From an uncultured bacterium (lineage in GTDB: Bacteria > Patescibacteriota > Minisyncoccia > UBA6257 > 2-01-FULL-56-20): a DNA stretch of 64,000 nt. Made by a program: the position numbers and the translations under genes. The stretch covers positions 822,028-886,027 of the forward strand of contig OY970175.1 in NCBI GenBank assembly GCA_963707865.1, read 5' to 3'. Of this stretch, positions 23,986-45,647 are shown one piece after another (position 1 is the first letter of the stretch; each line of letters opens with the position of its first letter). The notes under the pieces are model-generated. The model searched no databases. It worked only from the letters and a program-made list of their open reading frames with translations, and was not told the DNA's origin.

Positions 23986-26900
23986 ATGAATAGCACCAGT
24001 TTTAATTTTAGAAAATTCGTTCCCTTGTTTTTAATAATAGTGTTTGCCCTCGCCGGGTCGGTCTTTGTACAGCATGCGAGTGCAGGAACAATAGGTTCTG
24101 TAGGCATCGCGTCGCCGGCTGGCGGCCAGAAGTGGAGCGGTTCTCATAATATCACATGGACCACCACGGGAAATGCAGGTGGAACAAGTACGGTGAATAT
24201 TTATTATTGCCATGATACTCCGAGCGGCGGTTGTGGCGATGGAATAAATACACTTATTCAGGCAAGCGTCGCCGACGATAGTAGTAGCAGCACCGTAGAA
24301 ACATATAGCTGGAATACAACGTCCCCGTCCATACCAGATGGCTCCGATTATAAAATCAGGGTGTCCGCTTCGGCCGATGCTGGCGTTTCGGGTCTTTCGG
24401 GCACCGACTTCACCGTGGACAACACGCCGCCCACCATCTCTATTGGTTCCCCCTCGGCCTTGCTTACCGCTACAACTTCGGTCGCCTACACTATTACTTA
24501 TAGTGGTGCTAGTACGGTGACCCTCGTAGATGGAAACGTGACAGTGAATAAGACGGGTAGCGCCACGGGCACGGCCGCAGTCACCGGAAGCGGCACTTCC
24601 ACTCGCACTGTTACGATCTCAGGCATCGGCGGCACTGGAACGTTGAGTATCACGATTGCTACGGGGACCGCCTATGATGATGCAACCCCACCCAATTACG
24701 CCACAGGGACTGCCGCCAGCGCCACCTTCGCCGTGGACAATACAGCGCCCGCTGCGCCAACAGCAGTGACGCTTACCGATCCGATCAATTTAACAAACCA
24801 AGCAAGCGTTACGGTTACCGGCGATGCCGCGGGTGAAGCCGATGGCTCTGTGGTGACTTGTTCGGTCAGCGACCCAAGTGTAGTTCATACGGTTCAAGCT
24901 ACGAGTTCTGCAGCGACCAATGCATTTACCATTCCTTTAGACGTTCACACTTTGAACGATGGCACCTCGACTGCTACGTGTTACGTTACTGATCTTGCGG
25001 GAAATGTCGGTGCGACCCGAACCGATACGGCTACAAAAGATACGGTCGCGCCGACCATCTCCGTAAGCACGTCCTCGGCAACGCTTACGAACACCGGCCC
25101 CGTCACGTACACCGTTACGTACACCGGCGCTAGTGCGGTGACCCTTGTCCCGGGCGACATCACGCTCAATGCGAGCGGCACTGCCGCGGGCACCGTAGGG
25201 GTCTCCGGCACCAGCACCAGCGGGGGGACCGTCACGATCTCGGGCATCACCGGCGACGGGACGCTGGGTATCACGATCGCCGCGGGTACGGCGTCTGACG
25301 CTGCAGGGAACACCGCCACAGGGACTGCCGCCAGCGCCACCTTCGACGTGGACAATACCGCGCCGACCATCTCCGTAAGCACGTCCTCGGCAACGCTTAC
25401 GAACACCGGCCCCGTCACGTATACCGTTACGTACACCGGCGCTAGTGCGGTGACCCTTGTCAATGGAAACGTAACGCTTAACAAGACGGGCACGGCGACA
25501 GGAACCGTAGGGGTCTCCGGCACCAGCACCAGCGGGGGGACCGTCACGATCTCGGGCATCACCGGCGACGGGACGCTGGGTATCACGATCGCCGCGGGTA
25601 CGGCGTCTGACGCTGCAGGGAACACCGCCACAGGGACTGCCGCCAGCGCCACCTTCGACGTGGACAATACCGCGCCGACCGATCTAGTGGTTAATGCCGT
25701 CTTTGCGGCTTCAACGACCAAACAAGGCAACGCTTCAGTAACGATCGCAAGCTCCGGCGATGCGTCCAACACGGTTTGGTTCGCGCCGCCAGGAACCGTG
25801 GCCTTCGCTACAGACACGACCATGACCAAAGCGGGAGGAACCGATATTTCAATCCTTGCCCCCGCCAATGAGGGTTCCTACAAACTTTTTGTGATTGACG
25901 CCGCCGGCAATGTTTCGTCGGGATCCAATGCGATACTCACCGTGGACAATACGCCGCCGACCATCTCCGTAAGCACGTCCTCGCTCCCGGTCACGAACAC
26001 CGGCCCCGTCACCTACACCGTTACGTACACCGGAGCCAGCTCCGTAACGCTTGTCAACGGAGACGTAACGCTTAACAAGACGGGCACCGCGACAGGCACC
26101 GTAGGGGTCTCCGGCACCAGCACCAGCGGGGGGACCGTCACGATCTCGGGCATCACCGGCGACGGGACGCTGGGTATCACGATCGCCGCGGGTACGGCGT
26201 CTGACGCTGCAGGGAACACCGCCACAGGGACTGCCGCCAGCGCCACCTTCGACGTGGACAATACCGCGCCGACCATCTCCGTAAGCACGTCCTCGGCAAC
26301 GCTTACGAACACCGGCCCCGTCACGTACACCGTTACGTACACCGGCGCTAGTGCGGTGACCCTTGTCCCGGGCGACATCACGCTCAATGCGAGCGGCACT
26401 GCCGCGGGCACCGTAGGGGTCTCCGGCACCAGCACCAGCGGGGGGACCGTCACGATCTCGGGCATCACCGGCGACGGGACGCTGGGTATCACGATCGCCG
26501 CGGGTACGGCGTCTGACGCTGCAGGGAACACCGCCACAGGGACTGCCGCCAGCGCCACCTTCGACGTGGACAATACCGCGCCGACCATCTCCGTAAGCAC
26601 GTCCTCGCTCCCGGTCACGAACACCGGCCCCGTCACGTACACCGTTACGTACACCGGCGCTAGTGCGGTGACCCTTGTCCCGGGCGACATCACGCTCAAT
26701 GCGAGCGGCACTGCCGCGGGCACCGTAGGGGTCTCCGGCACCAGCACCAGCGGGGGGACCGTCACGATCTCGGGCATCACCGGCGACGGGACGCTGGGTA
26801 TCACGATCGCCGCAGGTACGGCGTCTGACGCTGCAGGGAACACCGCCACAGGGACTGCCGCCAGCGCCACCTTCGACGTGGACAATACCGCGCCGACCAT

Positions 26901-29900
26901 CTCCGTAAGCACGTCCTCGGCAACGCTTACGAACACCGGCCCCGTCACGTACACCGTTACGTACACCGGCGCTAGTGCGGTGACCCTTGTCCCGGGCGAC
27001 ATCACGCTCAATGCGAGCGGCACTGCCGCGGGCACCGTAGGGGTCTCCGGCACCAGCACCAGCGGGGGGACCGTCACGATCTCGGGCATCACCGGCGACG
27101 GGACGCTGGGTATCACGATCGCCGCGGGTACGGCGTCTGACGCTGCAGGGAACACCGCCACAGGGACTGCCGCCAGCGCCACCTTCGACGTGGACAATAC
27201 CGCGCCGACCATCTCCGTAAGCACGTCCTCGGCAACGCTTACGAACACCGGCCCCGTCACGTACACCGTTACGTACACCGGCGCTAGTGCGGTGACCCTT
27301 GTCCCGGGCGACATCACGCTCAATGCGAGCGGCACTGCCGCGGGCACCGTAGGGGTCTCCGGCACCAGCACCAGCGGGGGGACCGTCACGATCTCGGGCA
27401 TCACCGGCGACGGGACGCTGGGTATCACGATCGCCGCGGGTACGGCGTCTGACGCTGCAGGGAACACCGCCACAGGGACTGCCGCCAGCGCCACCTTCGA
27501 CGTGGACAATACCGCGCCGACCATCTCCGTAAGCACGTCCTCGCTCCCGGTCACGAACACCGGCCCCGTCACGTACACCGTTACGTACACCGGCGCTAGT
27601 GCGGTGACCCTTGTCCCGGGCGACATCACGCTCAATGCGAGCGGCACTGCCGCGGGCACCGTAGGGGTCTCCGGCACCAGCACCAGCGGGGGGACCGTCA
27701 CGATCTCGGGCATCACCGGCGACGGGACGCTGGGTATCACGATCGCCGCGGGTACGGCGTCTGACGCTGCAGGGAACACCGCCACAGGGACTGCCGCCAG
27801 CGCCACCTTCGACGTGGACAATACCGCGCCGACCATCTCCGTAAGCACGTCCTCGGCAACGCTTACGAACACCGGCCCCGTCACGTACACCGTTACGTAC
27901 ACCGGCGCTAGTGCGGTGACCCTTGTCCCGGGCGACATCACGCTCAATGCGAGCGGCACTGCCGCGGGCACCGTAGGGGTCTCCGGCACCAGCACCAGCG
28001 GGGGGACCGTCACGATCTCGGGCATCACCGGCGACGGGACGCTGGGTATCACGATCGCCGCGGGTACGGCGTCTGACGCTGCAGGGAACACCGCCACAGG
28101 GACTGCCGCCAGCGCCACCTTCGACGTGGACAATACCGCGCCGACCATCTCCGTAAGCACGTCCTCGGCAACGCTTACGAACACCGGCCCCGTCACGTAC
28201 ACCGTTACGTACACCGGCGCTAGTGCGGTGACCCTTGTCCCGGGCGACATCACGCTCAATGCGAGCGGCACTGCCGCGGGCACCGTAGGGGTCTCCGGCA
28301 CCAGCACCAGCGGGGGGACCGTCACGATCTCGGGCATCACCGGCGACGGGACGCTGGGTATCACGATCGCCGCGGGTACGGCGTCTGACGCTGCAGGGAA
28401 CACCGCCACAGGGACTGCCGCCAGCGCCACCTTCGACGTGGACAATACCGCGCCGACCATCTCCGTAAGCACGTCCTCGGCAACGCTTACGAACACCGGC
28501 CCCGTCACGTACACCGTTACGTACACCGGCGCTAGTGCGGTGACCCTTGTCCCGGGCGACATCACGCTCAATGCGAGCGGCACTGCCGCGGGCACCGTAG
28601 GGGTCTCCGGCACCAGCACCAGCGGGGGGACCGTCACGATCTCGGGCATCACCGGCGACGGGACGCTGGGTATCACGATCGCCGCGGGTACGGCGTCTGA
28701 CGCTGCAGGGAACACCGCCACAGGGACTGCCGCCAGCGCCACCTTCGACGTGGACAATACCGCGCCGACCATCTCCGTAAGCACGTCCTCGGCAACGCTT
28801 ACGAACACCGGCCCCGTCACGTACACCGTTACGTACACCGGCGCTAGTGCGGTGACCCTTGTCCCGGGCGACATCACGCTCAATGCGAGCGGCACTGCCG
28901 CGGGCACCGTAGGGGTCTCCGGCACCAGCACCAGCGGGGGGACCGTCACGATCTCGGGCATCACCGGCGACGGGACGCTGGGTATCACGATCGCCGCGGG
29001 TACGGCGTCTGACGCTGCAGGGAACACCGCCACAGGGACTGCCGCCAGCGCCACCTTCGACGTGGACAATACCGCGCCGACCTACTCGGTGGCATATACC
29101 GTAGGCGGAAGCCCCGTGACCTACCTCAATGAAAATGACCATGTCGTGATTACGGCGACCTTCAACGAAGACATGGCTGTCTCGCCGACACCTAAGATTC
29201 AGTTAGACGGTGCTGCGACTGCGTTATCGGCGACGGACATGGTGAGGGACACCGCCACCAGCTCTCACTACAACTGGTTCGCCGGTCAAACTGGAGACGG
29301 CGTGATGACGCCGACCGTGACCGTGGGAACGGATGTGGCGGGGAACACAGTGACCGAGGCTAGTTCTACGAAAACAACAATAATGGTGGACAACACAGCG
29401 CCGGTCGTTGACCCAGGTGCAAGTGTCGGAACGGTGGCGGAAGAATTTACGCAGAACGGATCTTCCACCGACGAAGGAGGTTCGGGCGTTAATACGGGCA
29501 CCTATCAATGGACCAAAGTGCTCGGTCCCGGTACGGTTACCTTTGGCAGTTCCTCCACCGCCATCACAACCGTAAGCGCCAATGTTGACGGTGCGTATGG
29601 TATCAAACTGGCCGTTAGTGATAATATCGGCAACATTGGTTCAAGCACCGTCGGTTTTGTGTGGTCATCCACCAATGTTCCTATAGTGTCTTACAATCCG
29701 GCCAGCGGGGCGACGGGGGTTTCTATAGCTACTGGCACGGCAATCGTAACTTTTAGCGCTGACATCACAATAGTAAGTTCCACTAAGGTTGATTTGGTAG
29801 ACGATGCCAGCAGCACTTCCATGAAAAATGGCGCGGTGACAGCTACCAGCAGCACTCTCCTCATTCCTTACGTCGGGCTGGGAAATGCGAGAGTGTATAG

Positions 29901-30825
29901 GATCAATATTCTGGCTGGCGCCGTGAGAGATGCGACCGGACATATCAACTCCGACGGCATTTCCTACTTCACGACCGCGCCAGTTCGCGACTTGACTCCG
30001 CCGACAGTTTCGACCCAGAGCCCCGAAGCGAGCACTACTCTCGCTGGCAATTTTGTCTCGAACGCCTACGTTGATTTTTCGAAAGCCATGGACCCGACTA
30101 CGATCGGCACCTCTACCATCAAGCTTTGCGTGGCGAGCGATACCAGCTGTAGCACTCCTTTCGATATCCCGGTAATCATCTTGGGCAATTCTGGCAGACG
30201 CGCCATCATCGGCGGACCGGGCCTCACGCTGGCTTACAGCACGAATTACTGGATTTGGGTAAAGGGTGGCGCGACCGGTGTGAAGGATTTATCCGGCAAC
30301 CCGCTGGCCTTTGGCGGAAGTCCCGTGGATAGCTATGGCTCGCCCAATAATGGGAATCCGGATTATTCTGGTTTCGCTACCGGCGCCCAGTCGCCTGGGG
30401 TGTTGAACATAGACAACGTCAGTATAAATCCCGCGAGATCGTATGCCGTTGCCACGAATACCTATGAGAATGGTTGGGAATGGTTCGTGAGCTTGACCAT
30501 CCCCGAGAACCAAACCTCGGTTCAGATGATGTTCAGTAACTTCACGAACGGCAGCGGTGGTGTTATTCCGGCCACAGACAACATCAGGTATTATTCGGCG
30601 CAATCTACCAATGCGACGTCATCAAGCCCGATCTCAAGTGCCGCAGCGGGAGAGTACCCCACGAGCACTATGAGCTTTGATCCTGTTACAAGTGACACCC
30701 AGTCCGGTATTGCCGGCATCCAGATCGTTGTGGGAGTTCAAGTGAAGATTCCCACGTCAACGACGAGCGGGGGAGCATACTCCGCGCAATTTAAGGTGAG
30801 GTCTTCCGGTCCTCCTCCCGGGTAG
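23986..30825 (+). CDS. giant secreted repeat protein (Ig-like/SbsA_Ig-like repeats; putative surface/S-layer-like or adhesin protein)
   Basis: 2279 aa. Signal peptide MNSTSFNFRKFVPLFLIIVFALAGSVFVQHASA. At least 12 near-identical 104-aa repeats DNTAPTISVSTSS(ATL/LPV)TNTGPVTYTVTYTGASAVTLVPGDITLNASGTAAGTVGVSGTSTSGGTVTISGITGDGTLGITIAAGTASDAAGNTATGTAASATFDV. Thr/Ser-rich, with Ig-like C-terminal modules. Confidence 0.85.
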   Translation: MNSTSFNFRKFVPLFLIIVFALAGSVFVQHASAGTIGSVGIASPAGGQKWSGSHNITWTTTGNAGGTSTVNIYYCHDTPSGGCGDGINTLIQASVADDSSSSTVETYSWNTTSPSIPDGSDYKIRVSASADAGVSGLSGTDFTVDNTPPTISIGSPSALLTATTSVAYTITYSGASTVTLVDGNVTVNKTGSATGTAAVTGSGTSTRTVTISGIGGTGTLSITIATGTAYDDATPPNYATGTAASATFAVDNTAPAAPTAVTLTDPINLTNQASVTVTGDAAGEADGSVVTCSVSDPSVVHTVQATSSAATNAFTIPLDVHTLNDGTSTATCYVTDLAGNVGATRTDTATKDTVAPTISVSTSSATLTNTGPVTYTVTYTGASAVTLVPGDITLNASGTAAGTVGVSGTSTSGGTVTISGITGDGTLGITIAAGTASDAAGNTATGTAASATFDVDNTAPTISVSTSSATLTNTGPVTYTVTYTGASAVTLVNGNVTLNKTGTATGTVGVSGTSTSGGTVTISGITGDGTLGITIAAGTASDAAGNTATGTAASATFDVDNTAPTDLVVNAVFAASTTKQGNASVTIASSGDASNTVWFAPPGTVAFATDTTMTKAGGTDISILAPANEGSYKLFVIDAAGNVSSGSNAILTVDNTPPTISVSTSSLPVTNTGPVTYTVTYTGASSVTLVNGDVTLNKTGTATGTVGVSGTSTSGGTVTISGITGDGTLGITIAAGTASDAAGNTATGTAASATFDVDNTAPTISVSTSSATLTNTGPVTYTVTYTGASAVTLVPGDITLNASGTAAGTVGVSGTSTSGGTVTISGITGDGTLGITIAAGTASDAAGNTATGTAASATFDVDNTAPTISVSTSSLPVTNTGPVTYTVTYTGASAVTLVPGDITLNASGTAAGTVGVSGTSTSGGTVTISGITGDGTLGITIAAGTASDAAGNTATGTAASATFDVDNTAPTISVSTSSATLTNTGPVTYTVTYTGASAVTLVPGDITLNASGTAAGTVGVSGTSTSGGTVTISGITGDGTLGITIAAGTASDAAGNTATGTAASATFDVDNTAPTISVSTSSATLTNTGPVTYTVTYTGASAVTLVPGDITLNASGTAAGTVGVSGTSTSGGTVTISGITGDGTLGITIAAGTASDAAGNTATGTAASATFDVDNTAPTISVSTSSLPVTNTGPVTYTVTYTGASAVTLVPGDITLNASGTAAGTVGVSGTSTSGGTVTISGITGDGTLGITIAAGTASDAAGNTATGTAASATFDVDNTAPTISVSTSSATLTNTGPVTYTVTYTGASAVTLVPGDITLNASGTAAGTVGVSGTSTSGGTVTISGITGDGTLGITIAAGTASDAAGNTATGTAASATFDVDNTAPTISVSTSSATLTNTGPVTYTVTYTGASAVTLVPGDITLNASGTAAGTVGVSGTSTSGGTVTISGITGDGTLGITIAAGTASDAAGNTATGTAASATFDVDNTAPTISVSTSSATLTNTGPVTYTVTYTGASAVTLVPGDITLNASGTAAGTVGVSGTSTSGGTVTISGITGDGTLGITIAAGTASDAAGNTATGTAASATFDVDNTAPTISVSTSSATLTNTGPVTYTVTYTGASAVTLVPGDITLNASGTAAGTVGVSGTSTSGGTVTISGITGDGTLGITIAAGTASDAAGNTATGTAASATFDVDNTAPTYSVAYTVGGSPVTYLNENDHVVITATFNEDMAVSPTPKIQLDGAATALSATDMVRDTATSSHYNWFAGQTGDGVMTPTVTVGTDVAGNTVTEASSTKTTIMVDNTAPVVDPGASVGTVAEEFTQNGSSTDEGGSGVNTGTYQWTKVLGPGTVTFGSSSTAITTVSANVDGAYGIKLAVSDNIGNIGSSTVGFVWSSTNVPIVSYNPASGATGVSIATGTAIVTFSADITIVSSTKVDLVDDASSTSMKNGAVTATSSTLLIPYVGLGNARVYRINILAGAVRDATGHINSDGISYFTTAPVRDLTPPTVSTQSPEASTTLAGNFVSNAYVDFSKAMDPTTIGTSTIKLCVASDTSCSTPFDIPVIILGNSGRRAIIGGPGLTLAYSTNYWIWVKGGATGVKDLSGNPLAFGGSPVDSYGSPNNGNPDYSGFATGAQSPGVLNIDNVSINPARSYAVATNTYENGWEWFVSLTIPENQTSVQMMFSNFTNGSGGVIPATDNIRYYSAQSTNATSSSPISSAAAGEYPTSTMSFDPVTSDTQSGIAGIQIVVGVQVKIPTSTTSGGAYSAQFKVRSSGPPPG
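25048..29085 (+). repeat. coding tandem repeat array, 312-bp unit, ~12 high-identity copies (two sub-variants, SATL/SLPV) interrupted by one divergent ~270-bp insert (25681-25950)
   Basis: Unit boundaries (gcgccgacc) recur at 25048, 25360, 25672, then 26266, 26578 ... 29074 every 312 bp. Copies differ by only a few SNPs. Confidence 0.9.
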
Positions 30826-37668: not shown

Positions 37669-38472
37669 ATGAGAAAGGTAACGAAGCTGGTGCTGCCCAT
37701 CGCGGGGCTTGGGAAGCGGCTTTTGCCCCTCACTAAATATGTGCCCAAGAACCTTATTCCTGTGAACGGAAGGCCTCTTTTGGAGTACGTGTTGGACGAG
37801 GCGGTTTCATGCGGGATACAAGAAGTCGTACTGGTGATAAACCCGAAGCACCGCGGGGATTTCGCCGCGTATGTTCGGAAAAACCAGAAGAGGTTCCCCA
37901 CGCTCACGTTTCATACGAGGATCCAGGAAACGCCCGGGGGGAACGGGCATGCCATCGTGAAGGCCTACGACATTCTTAGGGACGAACCGTTCGCTGTGCG
38001 TTTCTGCGATGATGTTGTTCTGGGTGATCCGCCGGTTCTGCGCGGCTTGCTAGACCTTTTTCATAAGTACAAAGCGTCCGTGCTGCTTCTTGAGCGCATT
38101 CCCAAGAGCAAGGTTTCGCGGTTCGGGGTAGTGGGATTTGAAAAAGCAAGGAAACTCCCTGTTTTCCAAGGCGGAAAGGTGTACCAGTTGAACAAAATCG
38201 TGGAGAAGCCAAAAAGGGATGAAGCGCCCTCCAATCTCATCATTGTGGGGGGATATGTTCTTACGTCGGAGATTTTGAGAAATCTTAGGATGGTGGCGGA
38301 TACCCTTCCTGTCATTGCGGACGACGCCTTGCCGCTCGCGGTCGCGTTGCAGGTAGACCTTATTCTGAAGAATAAGCTTTACGGTTGGGAGTTCCCTGGC
38401 AGGCGTCTTGACTGCGGCACGCTTGAAAAGCTTCGGGAAGCCGAAGAGTTCCTCGGTAAAAAAGCAAAATAG
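37669..38472 (+). CDS. galU: UTP--glucose-1-phosphate uridylyltransferase (GalU-like sugar nucleotidyltransferase)
   Basis: KLVLPIAGLGKRLLPLTKYVPKNLIPVNGRPLLEYVLDEAVSCGIQEVVLVIN matches the GalU N-terminal signature (A-G-G-TR-LP-TK--PKE). Confidence 0.75.
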   Translation: MRKVTKLVLPIAGLGKRLLPLTKYVPKNLIPVNGRPLLEYVLDEAVSCGIQEVVLVINPKHRGDFAAYVRKNQKRFPTLTFHTRIQETPGGNGHAIVKAYDILRDEPFAVRFCDDVVLGDPPVLRGLLDLFHKYKASVLLLERIPKSKVSRFGVVGFEKARKLPVFQGGKVYQLNKIVEKPKRDEAPSNLIIVGGYVLTSEILRNLRMVADTLPVIADDALPLAVALQVDLILKNKLYGWEFPGRRLDCGTLEKLREAEEFLGKKAK

Positions 38473-38555
38473 CCTAGAGGCAAGAGATATGGCATTTTGA
38501 CGGCACTTGTCTTACGTATGGCTGCAAAGTCGCATACCTTGTCTCCCCTTGCCTT

Positions 38556-39236
38556 TTGCCGGTTGCCGGATTATGCTTTTGCCGTATGGAAGAAACCGGC
38601 AAAAACAAGATTGCGCTTAAGAACGCATACGAAATCGGCTATGCAATCTTCCGCGTATGTGGAAGATCCACCAGTGTGGCCCTTAGGGAATCTCTGGAAA
38701 GGCAAGCCCTGTCCCTTTTGGAAGCTGCCTCCGTCGGAAATTATGGCCGCATGGTGACGATTTCCGGCACCATTGAATATCTCGTTCGATTTGGGAGCGA
38801 CGTAGGTTTGATCCACAAGGCGAACGGAGAAACGCTTACTTTCCAGCTCGGAGTGTTGAATGCGGCAATTGCCGGATCGGAGAAACCGGCAGAAATCAGC
38901 GAGGTTCCGCTTGGAGATATTTTTGGCGGGCAAGATGTTTTGTTTCCGGCAAAGCGGCAACACACAGAAGAAGCTGAAAATATACATAATCCGGCAAACA
39001 GTGCAAAAGCTGCAATGCGGCAAGCGGCAATTCTTGAAAAAATCAGGCAATCCGGCAATTGCCGGATTAAGGATATACAGGAACTTTTGCCGGATTGCAG
39101 TGAAAGGACAATCCGTTACGATCTCCAAACCCTCCTTGAGCAAAACCACATAGAAAGGGTTGGGGGCGGAGGGCCTGCCGTGTTGTACCGGATTCGGCAA
39201 GAAAACGGTAACCTTTCCCCCATAGACGCGTTATAA
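38556..39236 (+). CDS. hypothetical protein with C-terminal DeoR-like winged-HTH segment; ORF carries dense DNA-level 9-mer repeats (coding status uncertain)
   Basis: C-term IKDIQELLPDCSERTIRYDLQTLLEQNHIERV resembles a DeoR-type HTH. An alternative start is MEETGKNK at 38586. Six copies of ATCCGGCAA/TTGCCGGAT lie inside. Confidence 0.35.
   Translation: MPVAGLCFCRMEETGKNKIALKNAYEIGYAIFRVCGRSTSVALRESLERQALSLLEAASVGNYGRMVTISGTIEYLVRFGSDVGLIHKANGETLTFQLGVLNAAIAGSEKPAEISEVPLGDIFGGQDVLFPAKRQHTEEAENIHNPANSAKAAMRQAAILEKIRQSGNCRIKDIQELLPDCSERTIRYDLQTLLEQNHIERVGGGGPAVLYRIRQENGNLSPIDAL
39051..39068. repeat. 18-bp perfect palindrome ATCCGGCAATTGCCGGAT (operator/iteron-like)
   Basis: aatccggcaattgccggatt is its own reverse complement. 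Half-sites recur at 38567, 38871, 38990 and 39088. Confidence 0.8.
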
Positions 39237-39349
39237 TACCAGTAAAGGTTCAGTGTGAGGCTGGACCCCTAGTAACCGGGAATCCCCAGAAAACCTAATT
39301 TCTAGTATGCTAGAAACTAGGTCTTCTAGAAGCAAGGTTTACTAGACAA

Positions 39350-39378
39350 CCGGCCTCGCTAAAAGCGAGTTTTTTCAT
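39350..39378 (+). terminator. rho-independent terminator-like hairpin (CTCGC-TAAAA-GCGAG + T6)
   Basis: ggcctcgctaaaagcgagttttttc. Confidence 0.45.
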
Positions 39379-39536
39379 TTTTATAGCTACAACCCCGTTT
39401 TCTTCATTCTTCCCGCCGTCGCAACCTCACGGCGATTGCGGACAAGGATGGGGAGAGCGGTCCAGACACAAGTAAAACAACAGAAAGGTCGACGGCCAAA
39501 TGGTCGATATTAGATAAAAAGTCAAAAAACAAATTA

Positions 39537-42500
39537 ATGAATAGTAAAAAATTGATTTCGGTGGCACTCACCGCGACCACAGTTTTGTGGGCGCTGGGGA
39601 TTGCCACCCTTCCTCTCGCGAACGCACAGACCGCATCTGGCCTTCAGGATCAGATCACGGCCTTGCTCGCGCAGATCCAACAGTTGCAGGCGCAATTGGG
39701 AAGCACGCAGGGCATGGGTTCCACGTCTTCGTACTCATTCACCAGCGACCTCACCGTTGGTTCAAAGGGTGCCGACGTGACCGCGCTCCAGCAGCTCCTG
39801 ATTAACAAGGGATACCTTACCGCGGTCTCGGCTCCGACGGGTTACTTCGGGTCTTTGACCCAGGCGGCCTTGGGGAAGTTCCAGGCGGCGAATGGCATCT
39901 CTCCTACAGCCGGATACTTTGGTCCTAAGACCAGGGCATTCGTGAATTCTCTGAGTGTTGGTACGGGTACTGGCACGACGACCACCTATCCAGCTGGTTG
40001 CACTTCGTCGGTTGGCTACAGTCCAACGACTGGTCAATCGTGTGCTTCGGGTACCACCACGACGACGGTGACTCCGCCGGCGACCGGCCTCGCGGTTTCT
40101 CTTAGTTCGTCCAATCCGGCGGCTGGTTCGCTCATCTCTTCCGCTTCGGCGGCAGCGGCGCGCGTTCCGGTCCTCGCGATTAACCTAACGGCGTCCAACT
40201 CGGGCGCGGTAACGGTGACGGACATTAAGGTCCACAAGACGGGCGTCCTTTCAGACAGCTCCATCTCCGGCGCATACTTGGTCCAGAACGGCCAGGTGCT
40301 CTACCAGTACACATCGCTCAACCAGGGCGTTATTGACTTCTCCGGCTTGGCCCTTTCGGTTCCGGCCGGCCAGACGCAGACCCTCTCTGTGGCGATGGAC
40401 CCTTCAACGAACCTTGCTGCCGGCAACACGGTGGGATTTGCAGTAAACGCGGCCTCGGACATCACGGCGGTTGATGCGTCTAACAACGTGCTCACGCCTT
40501 CCGGTGGCTTCCCGCTCCTCGGCAACATCTTCACGGTGACGACGGTCAGCAACCCGTCCCTTGCGTCGTTGACGACGGCATCTACGTCCATCGGGACACA
40601 GGTTACGGCGGGTACGCAGAATAACATCGTCGGCGCGTGGACCTTCACGGGTCAGAACAGCTTGACATACCTCAAGGGCATCAAGTTCACGGTTATCGGT
40701 TCGGCAAACAACGCCGACATCCGGAACGTGAAGCTTAATGTAAACGGCGCGCAGGTGGGTCCCTCCTTGGCGACCGTCGGAGCGAACGGGGTGGCCTACT
40801 TTGACCTCTCGTCCTCTCCTGCGAGCATAAACACCGGAGGCAACAACATCCAGGTGTTTGCGGATGTCATGGGTTCTCCTTCAAAGAACTTCCAGTTTGA
40901 GATTTTGAACTCCTACGACGTCTACGCGATTGACTCGCAGTACAATGTCCCGATCTCAGTATCGGTGGTGGGTGGTGCGGGTACGGTGGTTACGATCCAA
41001 CAGGGTCAGATCACGGTCTCGCAGGACTCCGCGACCCCGACCGGCAACATTGCAGTCGGACAGTCCGGCGTCGTGCTCGCGAAGTTTGACATCTACGCGG
41101 CTGGCGAGCCGGTCAAGGTGAAATTCCTCGGCTTCAAGATCGCCCTCACGAACGTGGCGACGAGTTCTAGCGTGACTGCGTTGAGCAACATGCTCAAGAA
41201 CGTTTCGCTCGTTGATGACGCAGGTGGCCAGGTAGGTACCACCATCAACACGCCTCCGTCGGGCAATACATGTGACGTAACAACGGGTCAGAGTGGATAC
41301 ACGTCCAAATCTGACGGTACGTTCACGTCCGCCACGGTGGCTTACGTTGACTGCTTTGGTACGAACTCTTCGCCGATCAACTACATCATTCCGGCGAATA
41401 CGACTCGGGTGTTGTCCTTGAAGGCCGACATCCAGTCCACGGCGAGCTTCAGCACGATAGCGGCTTCCCTCTTGGCCGAGTCCAGCAACTTGCAGGGCTT
41501 GACCTCGAGCCAGACGGGTTCTTCGTCCGGCGCATCGGGCAGCGCGCTCTCGCTGCAGTCCAGCTTACTCTCTATTTCCGCAAACTCGGCCTACGGTAAT
41601 CAGACCGTTACACCGAACAGCACTGGCGTAAAGATCGGTTCCTACGCGTTCACGGCTTCGTCCGCGAGCGGTGTTCAGATCAACACGGTGAGCATCGAAC
41701 CGGTCAAGAATGGCAGCGGTTCCAGCGACATCCAGAACATGAAAGTCATGATCGGCGGCACGCAGTTCGGCACGACGCAGGGCGTAGTGGCTGACGCGGG
41801 AACGTACACGTTCTCCGGATCCGCCTTCACGGTCCCTGCCGGCGGCACGACCTACGTTGACGTGTATGCCGACATACTCTCCAACGCGACCTCGTCAATG
41901 AGCCCGGCCACTACGCTTACCGGTTGCTCGGGAACAAGCGTTATTTCCTACGGCGCGGTTTCCTGCACTGGCAGCGGTACTGACGGCGAGAACTTGACCG
42001 TTACCTCGAGTGGCGCGACTGTGGCAGTTGGTCTTGACTCCTCCGCTCCTGCGGCAGGTCTACTTGTCATGCCTTCCACAGGGAACTTGCTTGCAGCCTT
42101 CCGCTTCACGGAGACGACGAATGTTGAGAACGTGAAGATTACGGATCTCACGATCAAGCAGACCACGTCCGCGGGGGCTTCCGCGTACCAGAATGTGACG
42201 ATCTCCAACGGTTCCACGGTAGTCGGTACGTCCGGCAGCGCGTCTAGCACGAGCGGCGGCTTCGCGTACGTCTTCCACTTCGGGACCCCGCCCATCGTTC
42301 TACAGAACAACACGCTCGTGCTCACCCTGAAGGGTAATGTGCCGAGTTACACTGATCTCGGCAGCTCGTTGGACAACACGACGTCCACCTTCGGGATTGC
42401 CGCGACGTCTTCGGTAACGGCGTTGGGCGCAAGCTCCAACATCTCGTCGCAGATTTCGGGTACGGCGACCGGCAACACATTGACGGTTCTCCGCACGACG

Positions 42501-43022
42501 CTCACCCCGACCGCGACGGCGCTCGGAAGCCTCACGAGCCGCGTGAAGTCCTCGGTTGACAACCTCGCAACCATCACCCTTGCGGCGAATAACGCCGGAT
42601 CGGCCATGGTACGGACGTTGGCGATCAACTTCAGCGGTAACGCGATCTCTTCAACGGCGACGTCCTCGTTTGTCTTGCGCGACACGAACAATGTTGACGT
42701 GACAGACAGCACGAGCTACGGTGCCGTCCAGACTGGCGGTCCGTGCACGTCGAGCTGTACGCTCACGTGGACGTTCTCCACGAGCACGAATCCGTTGGTC
42801 GTCTCTGCGGGCGGTTCCTACACGCTCACGCTCCAGACGGATGATACCCACAGTTTCGGGGTTGGTGTTGGCAGCGCCTCGGTCAGCTTGAGCGCGACGC
42901 TCCAGACCACGGCGGCATTGACCTACTACGACAACAGCACGGCGACCGGCAGCACAATCAGCTTGCCGAACACCGTGGTGCCGTCCAGTATCACGAACAT
43001 CACGTTCGCGGCTGGGACATAG
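39537..43022 (+). CDS. large secreted Ser/Thr/Gly-rich surface protein with N-terminal coiled coil, PG_binding_1 domain and multiple Ig-like modules
   Basis: 1161 aa. Signal peptide. QDQITALLAQIQQLQAQL. PG_binding_1: DLTVGSKGADVTALQQLLINKGYL...GYFGSLTQAALGKFQAANGISPTAGYFGPKTRAFV. The rest is low-complexity S/T/G/A/V beta-rich sequence. Confidence 0.8.
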   Translation: MNSKKLISVALTATTVLWALGIATLPLANAQTASGLQDQITALLAQIQQLQAQLGSTQGMGSTSSYSFTSDLTVGSKGADVTALQQLLINKGYLTAVSAPTGYFGSLTQAALGKFQAANGISPTAGYFGPKTRAFVNSLSVGTGTGTTTTYPAGCTSSVGYSPTTGQSCASGTTTTTVTPPATGLAVSLSSSNPAAGSLISSASAAAARVPVLAINLTASNSGAVTVTDIKVHKTGVLSDSSISGAYLVQNGQVLYQYTSLNQGVIDFSGLALSVPAGQTQTLSVAMDPSTNLAAGNTVGFAVNAASDITAVDASNNVLTPSGGFPLLGNIFTVTTVSNPSLASLTTASTSIGTQVTAGTQNNIVGAWTFTGQNSLTYLKGIKFTVIGSANNADIRNVKLNVNGAQVGPSLATVGANGVAYFDLSSSPASINTGGNNIQVFADVMGSPSKNFQFEILNSYDVYAIDSQYNVPISVSVVGGAGTVVTIQQGQITVSQDSATPTGNIAVGQSGVVLAKFDIYAAGEPVKVKFLGFKIALTNVATSSSVTALSNMLKNVSLVDDAGGQVGTTINTPPSGNTCDVTTGQSGYTSKSDGTFTSATVAYVDCFGTNSSPINYIIPANTTRVLSLKADIQSTASFSTIAASLLAESSNLQGLTSSQTGSSSGASGSALSLQSSLLSISANSAYGNQTVTPNSTGVKIGSYAFTASSASGVQINTVSIEPVKNGSGSSDIQNMKVMIGGTQFGTTQGVVADAGTYTFSGSAFTVPAGGTTYVDVYADILSNATSSMSPATTLTGCSGTSVISYGAVSCTGSGTDGENLTVTSSGATVAVGLDSSAPAAGLLVMPSTGNLLAAFRFTETTNVENVKITDLTIKQTTSAGASAYQNVTISNGSTVVGTSGSASSTSGGFAYVFHFGTPPIVLQNNTLVLTLKGNVPSYTDLGSSLDNTTSTFGIAATSSVTALGASSNISSQISGTATGNTLTVLRTTLTPTATALGSLTSRVKSSVDNLATITLAANNAGSAMVRTLAINFSGNAISSTATSSFVLRDTNNVDVTDSTSYGAVQTGGPCTSSCTLTWTFSTSTNPLVVSAGGSYTLTLQTDDTHSFGVGVGSASVSLSATLQTTAALTYYDNSTATGSTISLPNTVVPSSITNITFAAGT

Positions 43023-43601: not shown

Positions 43602-43901
43602 ATGAAGAAACAAGTTGCGGTGGCGCCGATAGCGGAAAATGTTGAGAACAAAATACTGGTGATACGAGGATGCCGCGTGATGCTGGACGAAGACTTAGCT
43701 GCCATCTATCAAATAAATACGAAACGCCTAAATGAACAAGTGAGGCGCAATAGAGGTCGGTTTCCAAAAGACTTTATGTTTCAACTAACGAAGGATGAAA
43801 CTGATTGTTTGAGGTCGCAAATTGCGACCTCAAAGCGGGTGCGAAGGATACCTACTGGCCCGTTTTTTCGGTGGGCAGGAGCGTCTGCACAATCGTGCTG
43901 A
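43602..43901 (+). CDS. ORF6N-domain protein (KilA-N-related DNA-binding domain), apparently truncated
   Basis: ILVIRGCRVMLDEDLAAIYQINTKRLNEQVRRNRGRFPKDFMFQLTKDE...LRSQIATSKR matches the ORF6N core. Only ~99 aa, where ~180 aa is expected. 3' end overlaps the convergent gene by 50 nt. Confidence 0.5.
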   Translation: MKKQVAVAPIAENVENKILVIRGCRVMLDEDLAAIYQINTKRLNEQVRRNRGRFPKDFMFQLTKDETDCLRSQIATSKRVRRIPTGPFFRWAGASAQSC

Positions 43902-44661
43902 TGTCAAAAAACTTTTGGTAGGCGTCGGAAAGCGATTGGAGCGATTGCTGGATGGTTGCGAGCGACTGGTCGGGGGGCGATGACCGGAGGATGGCGTCTT
44001 CCGCCGCCTGGTTTTCGTCGCGCGCAGTTTGGACGAGCGCTTGGGCGTTCGCAAAATCGCTCTGGAGGTCGTTGTTCGGCGCCGCCTGCGTGAAGAGCGA
44101 AACGAGGTTTCCTATTCCCTGAAGCCGGCTCTCCGCGGCGCTGAAAAGATCCTGGTTCTTTGACCAAAGTATGAAATTCGCCACCTGTCCGGCGAGGGGA
44201 TCGTAATTGGAAGCCCGCCACGCGAGTATTTCTTTTGCGACTGCCTGCGTCCCTGCGACGCCCGCCCCGTTCACTTTCCCAAGTTCAATGTCGTAATAGT
44301 TCATCGCATCGCCGAGTTTTCCCAAGAGTTGCGACTGGAGTGTTTTTGCATCGTTACTCGTTGACGAGACGCTCGTCAGGTCGTCCTCAAGCGTTTGCGG
44401 ATCGGCCTTGGCGCACGTGATTGTTTTCGTGAGGAGCGCTTTCCGTACCGCGAGTTTGGCCACGAGCCCTTGCGCTTCGGCTGCCGTTACGGCATCAAGG
44501 TCGGCGGGCGCGATGACGCAGGATGCGTCAGCGTTCGCGGTCCGCGCCACATGAAGGAAAATTCCCAGGGCGACTGGGAGCGTGATCAAAAACACGATGG
44601 TTTTGACGGATAAGGTTTTCACGCCGATGTTATTTAGAGAGGCTACGGAGCGCGTCATCAA
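43852..44661 (-). CDS. hypothetical secreted protein (helical; downstream of the sigma/anti-sigma pair)
   Basis: Signal peptide. Ala/Gln/Leu-rich helical protein with conserved Cys pair. No family recognised. Confidence 0.5.
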   Translation of the reverse strand: MMTRSVASLNNIGVKTLSVKTIVFLITLPVALGIFLHVARTANADASCVIAPADLDAVTAAEAQGLVAKLAVRKALLTKTITCAKADPQTLEDDLTSVSSTSNDAKTLQSQLLGKLGDAMNYYDIELGKVNGAGVAGTQAVAKEILAWRASNYDPLAGQVANFILWSKNQDLFSAAESRLQGIGNLVSLFTQAAPNNDLQSDFANAQALVQTARDENQAAEDAILRSSPPDQSLATIQQSLQSLSDAYQKFFDISTIVQTLLPTEKTGQ

Positions 44662-45103
44662 TGCTTACGCTTGAAGTGGCGTTTGAAGTGGCCTCCGTGC
44701 CATTCACTGCGGGAGGCGTGCTCGTGGGCGCCGTTATGGCGCTGCCGGGCTTCGTTCCCGCGACCGCTGCCGTGGAAACCGCCGCCGGCTCGCTGTAGCT
44801 CAGATTGGCGAGCTGAATTTGGATATCAATCGCTTGCGCTTCCGCGCGGAGGCTCTGGGGGTCAATGGCCGAATATCGGGCGGGGGAGAATTCTGATCCG
44901 GGGAATGCGCCCGTGATGAGCAATATAAAAAACCCGGTAAGCGCCACTGCGACCCCGGTTTCAATGATTTTCCAAAAGGTCCGCTGTGCGCTCCACCCGG
45001 CCGCCTTCGGCTCCAGAGCCAAAATCGCCCGCTTGGAAGTTTCCTTGAACGCGGCGTCCGGTTCTATATTTTTAAATTGTTTGAGAATTTCAAAAAGGTT
45101 CAT
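44630..45103 (-). CDS. putative anti-sigma factor (single-TM membrane protein)
   Basis: 157 aa. Central TM (VAVALTGFFILLITGAF). Directly downstream of, and 8 nt from, the ECF sigma gene. Confidence 0.45.
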   Translation of the reverse strand: MNLFEILKQFKNIEPDAAFKETSKRAILALEPKAAGWSAQRTFWKIIETGVAVALTGFFILLITGAFPGSEFSPARYSAIDPQSLRAEAQAIDIQIQLANLSYSEPAAVSTAAVAGTKPGSAITAPTSTPPAVNGTEATSNATSSVSIDDALRSLSK

Positions 45104-45110
45104 GGTTTCA

Positions 45111-45647
45111 TTATGCGGTGAGTATCCGTTGCAGTTCTTTGATCGCCCGATGTTGCATGAGCTTCACTGCCCCTTCGGTTTTCTCCATCGCTCCGGCGGT
45201 TTCCTTGATGGGGAGTTCCTCAATAAATCGGAGGATGATGACGTCTTGGTATTCCGGCTTGAGCGTGGCGAGAACTGCGAACACTCTCTCTGTCTCAAGC
45301 TTCAGAGAAAGGTCAAACTGCGCTGTGGCGGGAATGACGAAGTGTTCGGGATCCATTCTCTCAATGCTCGTCTCGTTTTTCTTTGCACGGTAGTGATCAA
45401 CGATCTGATTCCGCGCGATCTGATAGAGCCAGCTTGAGAACGGATGTCCGCGGTGCTTGTAGCTCCTGATGCCCTGCCATGCCGAGAGGAAAACCTGATG
45501 GGTGATATCCTCGGCGTCCTCACGCCGACCGACCTTCACGAGTACGAACCGATAGATCATCGGCTGATAGTGATCGTAAAGAGGGCCGAACGCCGAGGAT
45601 TTCCCGGCGACAGCTTCCTTGATCAGTTTTGACTCGCTGTCTAACAT
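45111..45647 (-). CDS. RNA polymerase sigma factor, ECF (sigma-70 group 4) family
   Basis: Region 2 DAEDITHQVFLSAWQGIRSYKHRGHPFSSWLYQIARNQIVDHYR. Region 4 YQDVIILRFIEELPIKETAGAMEKTEGAVKLMQHRAIKEL. Confidence 0.85.
   Translation of the reverse strand: MLDSESKLIKEAVAGKSSAFGPLYDHYQPMIYRFVLVKVGRREDAEDITHQVFLSAWQGIRSYKHRGHPFSSWLYQIARNQIVDHYRAKKNETSIERMDPEHFVIPATAQFDLSLKLETERVFAVLATLKPEYQDVIILRFIEELPIKETAGAMEKTEGAVKLMQHRAIKELQRILTA

Follow-up and report, generated by a model that had tools for sequence, protein, structure and literature searches.

In Escherichia coli, DeoR acts through three operators and GlpR through tandem operators together with operators inside glpD; both proteins have a layout of about 250 amino acids (aa), with an N-terminal helix-turn-helix (HTH) and a C-terminal DeoRC domain (PF00455). 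RepA_N plasmid initiators, of the pAD1 and pSK41 type, carry their binding repeats and the origin in the variable middle of their own open reading frame (ORF). In the Spo0J/ParB system, which uses a cytidine triphosphate-dependent spreading protein, parS lies inside spo0J as a single 16-bp palindrome per gene, with the other sites around the origin. The omega repressor of pSM19035 is a ribbon-helix-helix protein that binds heptad arrays upstream of promoters, outside its ORF, and these serve as cooperative operators and also as a centromere. Here, the gene for a putative DeoR-type regulator was analysed in a 64,000-nucleotide (nt) stretch of contig OY970175.1 from an uncultured bacterium of the Minisyncoccia (the window; all positions refer to it unless stated otherwise). 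The ORF is filled with copies of the 9-mer ATCCGGCAA, which is probably the recognition site of the encoded protein and would serve for negative autoregulation and for the control of a small regulon.

The regulator resembles DeoR and GlpR in its HTH_DeoR domain and in its several putative operators, some of them past the start or in coding DNA, as in cooperative or looping repression. It differs in that its HTH is C-terminal, that a four-helix bundle stands in place of the DeoRC sugar-phosphate sensor, and that its own ORF holds 10-15 sites, 9-bp units in 8-bp tandem or zero-gap inverted arrangement that partly dictate the protein sequence. With the RepA_N initiators it shares repeats, presumably bound by the product, inside its own coding sequence, in the variable middle part; however, it is a chromosomal core gene that lacks a Rep domain and shows no trace of an origin, and its repeats are much shorter, lie on both strands and in three frames, and extend to the promoter and the conserved domains. 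As in Spo0J/ParB, a DNA-binding protein would have its recognition site in its own coding sequence, but the regulator has a dense array, lacks a ParB domain and belongs to a different family. The contiguous short (7-9 bp) asymmetric units, direct and inverted, in arrays of about 5-10 recall those of the omega repressor, although omega is a ribbon-helix-helix protein of a plasmid system with arrays outside its own ORF, whereas the regulator is a winged HTH (wHTH) protein with sites in the ORF.

In vertebrates, the cluster of self-sites at the YY1 locus is said to be intronic and not coding. A report on that locus describes a conserved cluster of the factor's own binding sites and proposes that it maintains the level of the factor (PMC2743690). 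Both loci are transcription factor genes with a cluster of putative or known own sites inside the gene; the vertebrate cluster does not overlap the protein code, whereas the sites of the regulator are coding. To our knowledge, none of the bacterial and plasmid systems compared has one short site that saturates the ORF of a regulator in all frames and fixes its invariant residues.

In the window, the exact 9-mer (reverse complement TTGCCGGAT) occurred seven times against 0.76 expected, a count attained by none of 100 dinucleotide-preserving shuffles of the window. One copy was found at 30291; the other six sit in the regulator locus (38556-39200):

38563-38571, minus strand: exact copy
38869-38877, minus strand: exact copy
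38989-38997, plus strand: exact copy
39050-39058, plus strand: exact copy
39059-39067, minus strand: exact copy
39087-39095, minus strand: exact copy

When up to one mismatch was allowed, there were 43 matches in the window (22.4 expected), 14 of which fell within the 645 bp of the locus, or 1% of the window. The stretch 39050-39067 is the perfect 18-bp palindrome ATCCGGCAATTGCCGGAT, and a second, near-palindrome (ATGCGGCAA abutting TTGCCGGAT) was found at 38860-38877. Copies in the window occupy all three frames and both strands. An earlier note on this DNA had described a recurrent 9-mer with at least six copies and a perfect 18-bp palindrome; both were recovered, the former as six exact copies and 14 with up to one mismatch, at positions 1-4 nt from those it gave.

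Conservation was assessed in 80 orthologous loci from GTDB species representatives and in three loci of close relatives. Across about 79 non-redundant loci, with protein identities of 30-88% and guanine-plus-cytosine (GC) contents of 37-61%, the exact 9-mer was counted 300 times in the genes and the 80 nt before each of them (62.9 kb in total; 4.77 per kb) and 58 times in 1.26 Mb of flanks (0.046 per kb, about 100-fold lower), a pattern conserved in about 75 Paceibacteria species. Most of these flank copies were immediately up- or downstream of the gene or belonged to a chance FLPDKA codon string in clpB. In an unbiased hexamer test of each gene against its own flanks, CGGCAA ranked first in 45 of 74 loci and among the top three in 63, while the overlapping ATTGCC ranked first in 14; the median number of CGGCAA cores in these 74 loci was 12 per gene of about 0.8 kb. 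Enrichment persisted in low-GC orthologues of 30-35% identity, in which the prefix drifts to ATTCGGCAA or ATGCGGCAA, and the family logo reads a-ATCCGGCAA-t with CGGCAAT as its universal core. Neighbouring copies were most commonly arranged as 8-bp direct tandems (54 cases), and 19 zero-gap head-to-head pairs were also counted. All six combinations of strand and frame were used (65, 64, 28, 26, 15 and 13 copies), with about three plus-oriented copies to one minus-oriented copy inside the ORFs. A scan of viral contigs for the tandem 17-mer gave 18 matches, none with the regulator gene; apart from two with 5-6 copies, these were single occurrences or 8-mer microsatellites.

The overlap of the motif with the protein code was extensive. 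In its three frames ATCCGGCAA reads I-R-Q, S-G-N and (N)-P-A, its reverse complement reads L-P-D, C-R-I and (I)-A-G, and the words so encoded are the most conserved peptides of the family (M-x-E-S/T-G-K, AIAG, RQ, IRQSGNCRI and LPD). The motif peptides IRQ, SGN and NPA recur in varying number in the variable linker; in one orthologue (L041) the linker DNA gaATCCGGCAATCCGGCAAtggatgATCCGGCAAccgccgaATCCGGCAATCCGGCAATTGCCGGAT encodes ESGNPAMDDPATAESGNPAIAG. When every conserved degenerate column of a 56-orthologue codon alignment was scanned, codon entropies of 0.24-1.1 bits were found only inside copies, at R145, Q146, R154, Q155, G157, N158, C159 and P169. Conserved Arg, Gly, Leu and Pro residues outside copies had entropies of 1.7-2.5 bits and two-fold residues about 1.0 bit, which is near-random codon use. 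Within copies a single codon prevailed at Q155 (CAA, 96%), C159 (TGC, 94%), R154 (CGG, 92%), N158 (AAT, 92%), Q146 (CAA, 91%), G157 (GGC, 88%) and R145 (CGG, 80%), and in the copy at 39087-39095 L168 was TTG in 46 of 54 orthologues and P169 was CCG in 48 of 53. In the flanking genes, CGG makes up 20% of Arg codons, CAA 36% of Gln codons and TCC 21% of Ser codons.

Selection acts on the nucleotides of the motif copies, and the operator appears to explain both the invariance of residues such as RQSGNCR and a linker made of IRQ, SGN and NPA peptides. The gene is genuine, and its synonymous sites are frozen only in the repeats, the opposite of the synonymous drift at repeat positions that the earlier note had set against its own proposal. 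A tandem peptide repeat was ruled out by the use of all six strand and frame combinations together with the freezing of synonymous sites only within motif copies, in line with that note's view of a signal in the DNA and not a protein repeat. The probability of chance, or of a by-product of amino-acid and codon preferences, is negligible. Nothing speaks for it beyond the coding of conserved residues by some copies. Against it stand the shuffles, none of which attained the observed count, the roughly 100-fold enrichment over the flanks, the minority status that the frozen codons have in the flanking genes, and the occurrence of copies in every frame and in non-coding DNA. The freezing of synonymous sites in the copies excludes chance, codon bias and an explanation at the protein level alone.

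The gene that carries the array is as follows:

38586-39236, plus strand: coding sequence for a protein of 216 aa with a four-helix bundle, a disordered linker and a DeoR-type winged HTH, from public homologues, Pfam and AlphaFold2

The mechanical ORF call ran from 38556 to 39236, with a TTG start and 226 aa. The ORF start was mis-set upstream: the public homologues and the conserved promoter place the true start at the ATG at 38586, which makes the copies at 38556-38571 promoter DNA and not coding sequence. A public protein of 216 aa (P0001) is 100% identical to the gene product, and 204 homologues (E ≤ 1e-3) were found in Minisyncoccia, Paceibacterota and other Parcubacteria, mostly annotated as "DeoR family transcriptional regulator" or "hypothetical". 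The possibility of a mis-called ORF, raised earlier, did not hold for this genuine gene with more than 200 homologues, of which the start codon alone was wrong. ClpB precedes the gene in 63 loci and a peptidoglycan (PG)-binding surface protein follows it in 67; a membrane protein and GalU are the other conserved neighbours. The protein, as proposed here, is probably specific to Paceibacteria.

The sole Pfam match in the regulator was PF08220 (HTH_DeoR), at the C-terminus (residues 155-205 of the 226-aa ORF; E = 4.2e-10, 39.6 bits against a cut-off of 21), where a DeoR-like winged HTH had already been read from the translation. No Pfam match to the DeoRC effector domain (PF00455) was obtained, and the full-length NCBIfam DeoR/GlpR models aligned over only their first 56 or so positions, all with scores well short of their cut-offs (for example, 32 bits against a cut-off of 300). 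In the AlphaFold2 model (32-sequence alignment; mean predicted local distance difference test [pLDDT] score of 79.9), a four-helix bundle at aa 4-95 and a winged HTH at aa 136-205 were predicted confidently, and the linker at about aa 96-135 was predicted to be disordered, with pLDDT below 50 at 115-135. Foldseek, the matches of which were all generic with E >0.007, aligned the N-terminal bundle with four-helix bundles of the S23-ribosomal-protein family (2gsc and 2rld; template modelling score about 0.7 on the target) and the C-terminus with generic ArsR, MarR, MecI and AspA winged helices; a PDB sequence search with the family profile gave no meaningful match. The regulator therefore has a DeoR HTH but not the DeoR family architecture, its HTH being C-terminal and its four-helix bundle N-terminal.

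A stop-free antisense ORF of 209 aa (38571-39200, minus strand) covers nearly the whole of the gene and holds the same peptide words, NPAIAG and SGNCRI, because the motif reads on both strands. Literature searches on the candidate phyla radiation with DeoR, and on Patescibacteria with leaderless promoters, gave nothing relevant; a search with the 9-mer gave only matches that, judged by their titles, seemed unconnected (primers, vectors and unrelated genomes), and no earlier description of the motif or of the behaviour of the family was found in these searches. Rfam had no relevant family in a gathering scan of the window or in an E-value scan of 38450-39600.

Promoter elements were read by consensus and conservation, and positions relative to the transcription start are predicted. 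In about 55 orthologues the region upstream of the ATG consists of TTGACx or TTGCAA, a 17-nt spacer, TATAAT, TATACT or TATGCT, and 6-8 nt before the ATG; in many species the spacer is exactly TTGCCGGATTGCCGGAT, that is, two motif copies. This arrangement is predicted to be a sigma-70-type promoter for a leaderless (or nearly leaderless) mRNA. A simple consensus scanner gave no call for the regulator promoter, the support for which is conservation. The promoter elements and motif copies along the gene are:

38549-38554, plus strand: -35-like hexamer TTGCCT, by consensus; orthologues have TTGACx or TTGCAA there
38555-38571: 17-nt spacer, tTTGCCGGTTGCCGGAT
38556-38571, minus strand: two overlapping tandem copies, TTGCCGGTT (one mismatch) and TTGCCGGAT (exact), offset by 7 nt
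38572-38577, plus strand: -10-like hexamer TATGCT with the ATG 8 nt on, a geometry conserved in about 55 orthologues
38578-38585: tttgccgt, followed by the ATG at 38586
38579-38587, minus strand: copy TTGCCGTAT (one mismatch), which runs across the predicted transcription start to the second base of the ATG
38594-38602, plus strand: copy AACCGGCAA, encoding the conserved E-T-G-K of codons 3-6
38860-38877: head-to-head pair of ATGCGGCAA and TTGCCGGAT, encoding N-A-A-I-A-G-S where the helical domain ends
38944-38960, plus strand: tandem pair of TTCCGGCAA and AAGCGGCAA with an 8-nt period, in the linker, encoding F-P-A-K-R-Q
38989-38997, plus strand: exact copy in the linker, read as N-P-A; absent in the relative L002
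39015-39030, plus strand: ATGCGGCAA and AAGCGGCAA, encoding M-R-Q-A-A-I with the invariant R145 and Q146
39042-39067: triple site of ATCAGGCAA, ATCCGGCAA and abutting TTGCCGGAT, encoding I-R-Q-S-G-N-C-R-I at the start of the HTH domain and including the 18-bp palindrome
39087-39095, minus strand: exact copy, encoding L-P-D directly before the recognition helix
39192-39200, plus strand: copy ATTCGGCAA (one mismatch), encoding I-R-Q near the C-terminus, 7 nt 5' of the extracytoplasmic function (ECF)-like -35 of the next gene

The tandem copies at 38556-38571 take up 16 of the 17 nt of the spacer. In the site at 38594-38602, G5 and K6 are nearly invariant and orthologues often have the exact ATCCGGCAA. 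The promoter-region copies lie at about -29 to -14, -6 to +3 and +10 to +18, a layout that is similar in most of the 55 or so orthologues, and between -29 and +18 they occupy positions where a bound protein would be expected to exclude RNA polymerase. Within the ORF, the pair at 38860-38877 is unchanged in the close relatives L001 and L002, and the loss of the copy at 38989-38997 in L002 demonstrates turnover among the linker copies. Regulation of clpB, the upstream gene, by the motif was considered and rejected, the clpB promoter being without copies; the TTGCCGGAT inside clpB is a coincidence with its conserved FLPDKA codons.

Copies of the motif were also found away from the regulator. A metagenome scan for the 18-bp palindrome returned at least 120 stretches; among the matches listed, 20 had the regulator gene, about a dozen more were partial genes or dksA-region arrays, and some 85 were isolated matches with no relation to this system, for example in terminator hairpins of low-GC taxa. 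The dksA-region locus, which runs from yraN/nusA to a dksA-like gene and comM, was seen in about ten of the matches listed. The array at that locus is intergenic and non-coding and has 4-10 motif copies, with a divergent yraN (UPF0102)-nusA unit on one side and a dksA/traR-like zinc-finger gene, followed by comM/yifB, on the other. When dksA-like loci were chosen irrespective of the motif, all seven had at least two CGGCAA cores within about 250 nt upstream and six had at least three, the background for the core being about 1.5 per kb. Array and regulator share a contig in two cases, about 60 kb apart on contig_20113 (726,381 bp) and about 90 kb apart on contig_41201 (510,887 bp). On contig_20113 the regulator spacer has the variant TTGCAGGATTGCAGGAT and the identical variant 17-mer is present in the dksA-upstream array, which points to a single trans-acting factor reading both.

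In many Paceibacteria, the same yraN/nusA to dksA-like/comM intergenic regions hold clusters of 2-9 parS-like 16-bp palindromes (TGTTTnnCGnnAAACA), a motif distinct from the 9-mer. The following clusters, all outside the window, are given in the coordinates of their own loci:

L155, 8464-8590: parS-like cluster
L228, 978-1266: parS-like cluster
L103, 588-880: parS-like cluster
L144, 812-960: parS-like cluster

Neighbouring palindromes are often spaced by about 36-37 nt, and one is a perfect canonical parS, TGTTTCACGTGAAACA. The clusters adjoin the CGGCAA-motif array and a conserved box, TAGGTTTTAyGGGCTTATCGGGTT; even the loose form GTTT-N6-AAAC had only 24 matches in 1.4 Mb of other Paceibacteria DNA. 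The cluster region may be a centromere or an origin-proximal organising region.

The earlier note had offered, among other ideas, an autoregulated DNA-binding protein with sites in its own gene, and this is the best fit to the data because sites lie in the promoter spacer and at the start, codons are frozen, the array is conserved throughout the family and a second, non-coding array exists. The data show the clustering of the motif, its conservation in the family, selection on its nucleotides, its place relative to the promoter and the second array, with a variant in common in one genome; we infer which protein is the binder, that its effect is repressive and what the intragenic copies do. The winged-HTH protein would bind the 9-mer a-ATCCGGCAA-t and, when seated on the spacer, on the start of transcription and translation and on codons 3-6, would exclude RNA polymerase and so bring about negative autoregulation. 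The ten or so further copies in the coding sequence could raise the local protein concentration and permit looping, cooperative binding or roadblock complexes, and the disordered linker would give the HTH domains enough freedom to bind sites of both orientations and to cope with the unusual 8-bp tandem period. The selected sites would fix codons and some residues (IRQSGNCRI, LPD, AIAG, ESGK and RQ) and also compose the variable linker. With the arrays upstream of the dksA-like/comM operon, the same factor would have at least one further target and hence a small regulon. Among the orthologous loci, the array is always found with the regulator, and no other DNA-binding gene is as constant a companion.

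Autoregulation through operators is itself ordinary; what is unusual is that the ORF of a whole protein family is full of probable sites for its own product, with selection measurable at the synonymous positions. The saturated ORF is therefore a natural example, of unusual clarity, in which a regulatory code and a protein code overlap. A further outcome is a candidate transcription factor motif and mini-regulon (the gene itself and dksA-like/comM) for uncultivated Paceibacteria.

Several observations weigh against autoregulation by the encoded protein. Its recognition helix, SERTIRYDL, is invariant, which precludes a clean signal of co-evolution between protein and motif. When the base that precedes CGGCAA (C, T or G) was compared with residues of the HTH, phylogeny confounded the result, as did the fact that the motif itself encodes LPD. 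The 8-bp tandem period and the zero-gap inverted pairs are unusual for a dimeric wHTH, and at least ten sites in the protein's own ORF exceed the evident need of simple autorepression. In one genome, at L039 (contig_20113) and L204, a C-to-A variant, TTGCAGGAT, was found only in minus-oriented copies, namely the promoter-spacer tandem, the NCRM codons, one N-terminal copy and the dksA-upstream tandem, while the plus-oriented ORF copies in that variant genome stay CCGGCAA or TCGGCAA; the change is thus specific to one orientation. Neither the window nor the flanks of the 80 loci contain the dksA-like locus, and a homologue search did not have the dksA-like gene of the source genome among the matches listed. 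Finally, at the dksA-like promoter the array lies upstream of the -35, so that regulation there may be of either sign.

The encoded protein could instead bind the array for a main purpose other than transcription, as a centromere-like, nucleoid-organising or datA-like titration hub that buffers a protein of few molecules per ultra-small cell or marks a chromosomal position. The site density (median of 12 cores per 0.8 kb) is far above what promoter occlusion needs, the second array lies beside the clusters of TGTTTnnCGnnAAACA, the wHTH fold also matches the centromere-binding AspA (among many generic matches), and short contiguous repeats in two orientations recall the plasmid centromeres of the omega protein. 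Theoretical work on decoy sites for self-regulating genes also exists (PMC4374843). Yet the copies overlap the core promoter and start in most orthologues, as classical operators do; neither a ParB gene nor one for a partition ATPase is linked to the regulator in the orthologous loci; and the window has neither a parS-like palindrome nor a GC-skew inflection. A hub is rather unlikely as the main purpose, and it is compatible with autoregulation, the two not being mutually exclusive. The parS idea raised at the outset finds no support in its literal form, since the array does not have the 16-bp palindrome TGTTnCACGTGAAACA of ParB-parS systems, the window has no TGTTTnnCGnnAAACA and no ParB domain was found; a centromere-like role is retained as this rival. 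More speculatively, the regulator may be self-templated, with an ORF partly built from its own operator, in that a single 9-mer, through three frames and two strands, provides invariant residues as well as the entire disordered linker, and with a gene body that acts as a cis reservoir or counter for the product; this proposal, which extends to replication-coupled or copy-number titration and to a hub functionally tied to the parS-like cluster at dksA/yraN, is tentative and less likely than not. If true, it would give ultra-small cells with few regulator molecules a built-in means of buffering and timing expression.

The motif could also be read by another trans-acting factor (a regulator, a sigma factor or a nucleoid protein), with the regulator gene as its most controlled target. 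Binding by the encoded protein is, after all, deduced from sequence, TTGCCG is similar to a -35 hexamer and in some promoters also serves as one, and the dksA-like arrays show the motif acting in trans on other genes. This is unlikely, however, given that the array has been co-inherited with this one gene throughout the family over long evolution, that the gene itself encodes a DNA-binding domain, which makes self-recognition more economical, and that no other DNA-binding gene is consistently linked. Pairing of plus and minus copies in the mRNA, to control the translation or stability of a leaderless transcript, is very unlikely. The transcript folds somewhat better than its shuffles (z = -2.5; none of 20 shuffles folds as well) and the palindrome can form a 7-bp hairpin, but inverted DNA sites yield such a fold anyway and the z-score is uninformative. 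Conserved copies also lie in the promoter spacer, which is untranscribed and so argues for function at the DNA rather than the RNA level, and in non-coding arrays elsewhere. The orientations are unbalanced, with a plus to minus ratio of about 3:1 in the ORFs, and copies within long same-orientation tandems cannot pair with one another. An iteron-type replication origin or partition site in or instead of the gene, as in the RepA_N plasmids, was suggested by the earlier note and would agree with repeats in a variable centre between conserved N- and C-terminal domains. It was not borne out and is highly improbable: the gene is a genuine chromosomal one in conserved synteny, it has no Rep or ParB domain in Pfam or NCBIfam, no ParB gene is linked to it, its 9-bp units in both orientations and at irregular spacing contrast with direct iterons of 17-22 bp, the cumulative GC skew rises steadily through the locus with no switch, and neither DnaA boxes nor an AT-rich unwinding element were found in 38480-39260. 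Negative autoregulation by the encoded protein thus remains the probable reading.

Directly 3' of the regulator, and overlapping its stop, a conserved regulatory module was observed at 39207-39375, at the same position in about 50 ortholog loci. It precedes the gene for a secreted PG_binding_1 protein of 1161 aa (39537-43022) and has these parts:

39207-39237: ECF-sigma-like promoter of GGTAACC (39207-39213), N, and CGTTATAAT (39229-39237), with 16 nt between AAC and CGT
39247-39267: hairpin GGTTCAGTGTGAGGCTGGACC, followed by a variable insert
39350-39359: CCGGCCTCGC, overlapping an intrinsic terminator at 39355-39369 that is followed by a T-run

The loop and 3' arm of the hairpin, GTGAGGCTGG, are able to pair alternatively with CCGGCCTCGC. 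This long-range helix of 10 bp was 94% paired in 16 species, compared with 33-46% when slid, and three of its pairs showed double changes. In appearance the module is a leader of the attenuator or riboswitch type, or else a small RNA; it matched no Rfam family. In many orthologues (L006, L015, L025, L031, L076, L079 and others) a perfect DnaA-box consensus, TTATCCACA, lies between the ECF-like promoter and the attenuator hairpin, 60-150 nt past the regulator stop; the intergenic region of the window is without it.

An ECF-type sigma factor is encoded in the window at 45111-45647 on the minus strand, with Sigma70_r2 and r4_2 domains and an NCBIfam sigma70-ECF score of 97.7 bits against a cut-off of 42.9, and it could be the factor that recognises the ECF-like promoter at 39207-39237. 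The two ORFs after it (44630-45103 and 43852-44661, both on the minus strand) had no Pfam match and may be anti-sigma partners. This arrangement of a sigma factor and two ORFs, 6-7 kb downstream of the regulator, was conserved in about 20 ortholog loci. Elsewhere in the window, an ORF of 2279 aa (23986-30825) has a GC content of 0.59-0.65, compared with about 0.54 elsewhere, and is accompanied by antisense ORFs of 1097 and 1018 aa; such long antisense ORFs suggest low-complexity or repetitive coding sequence.

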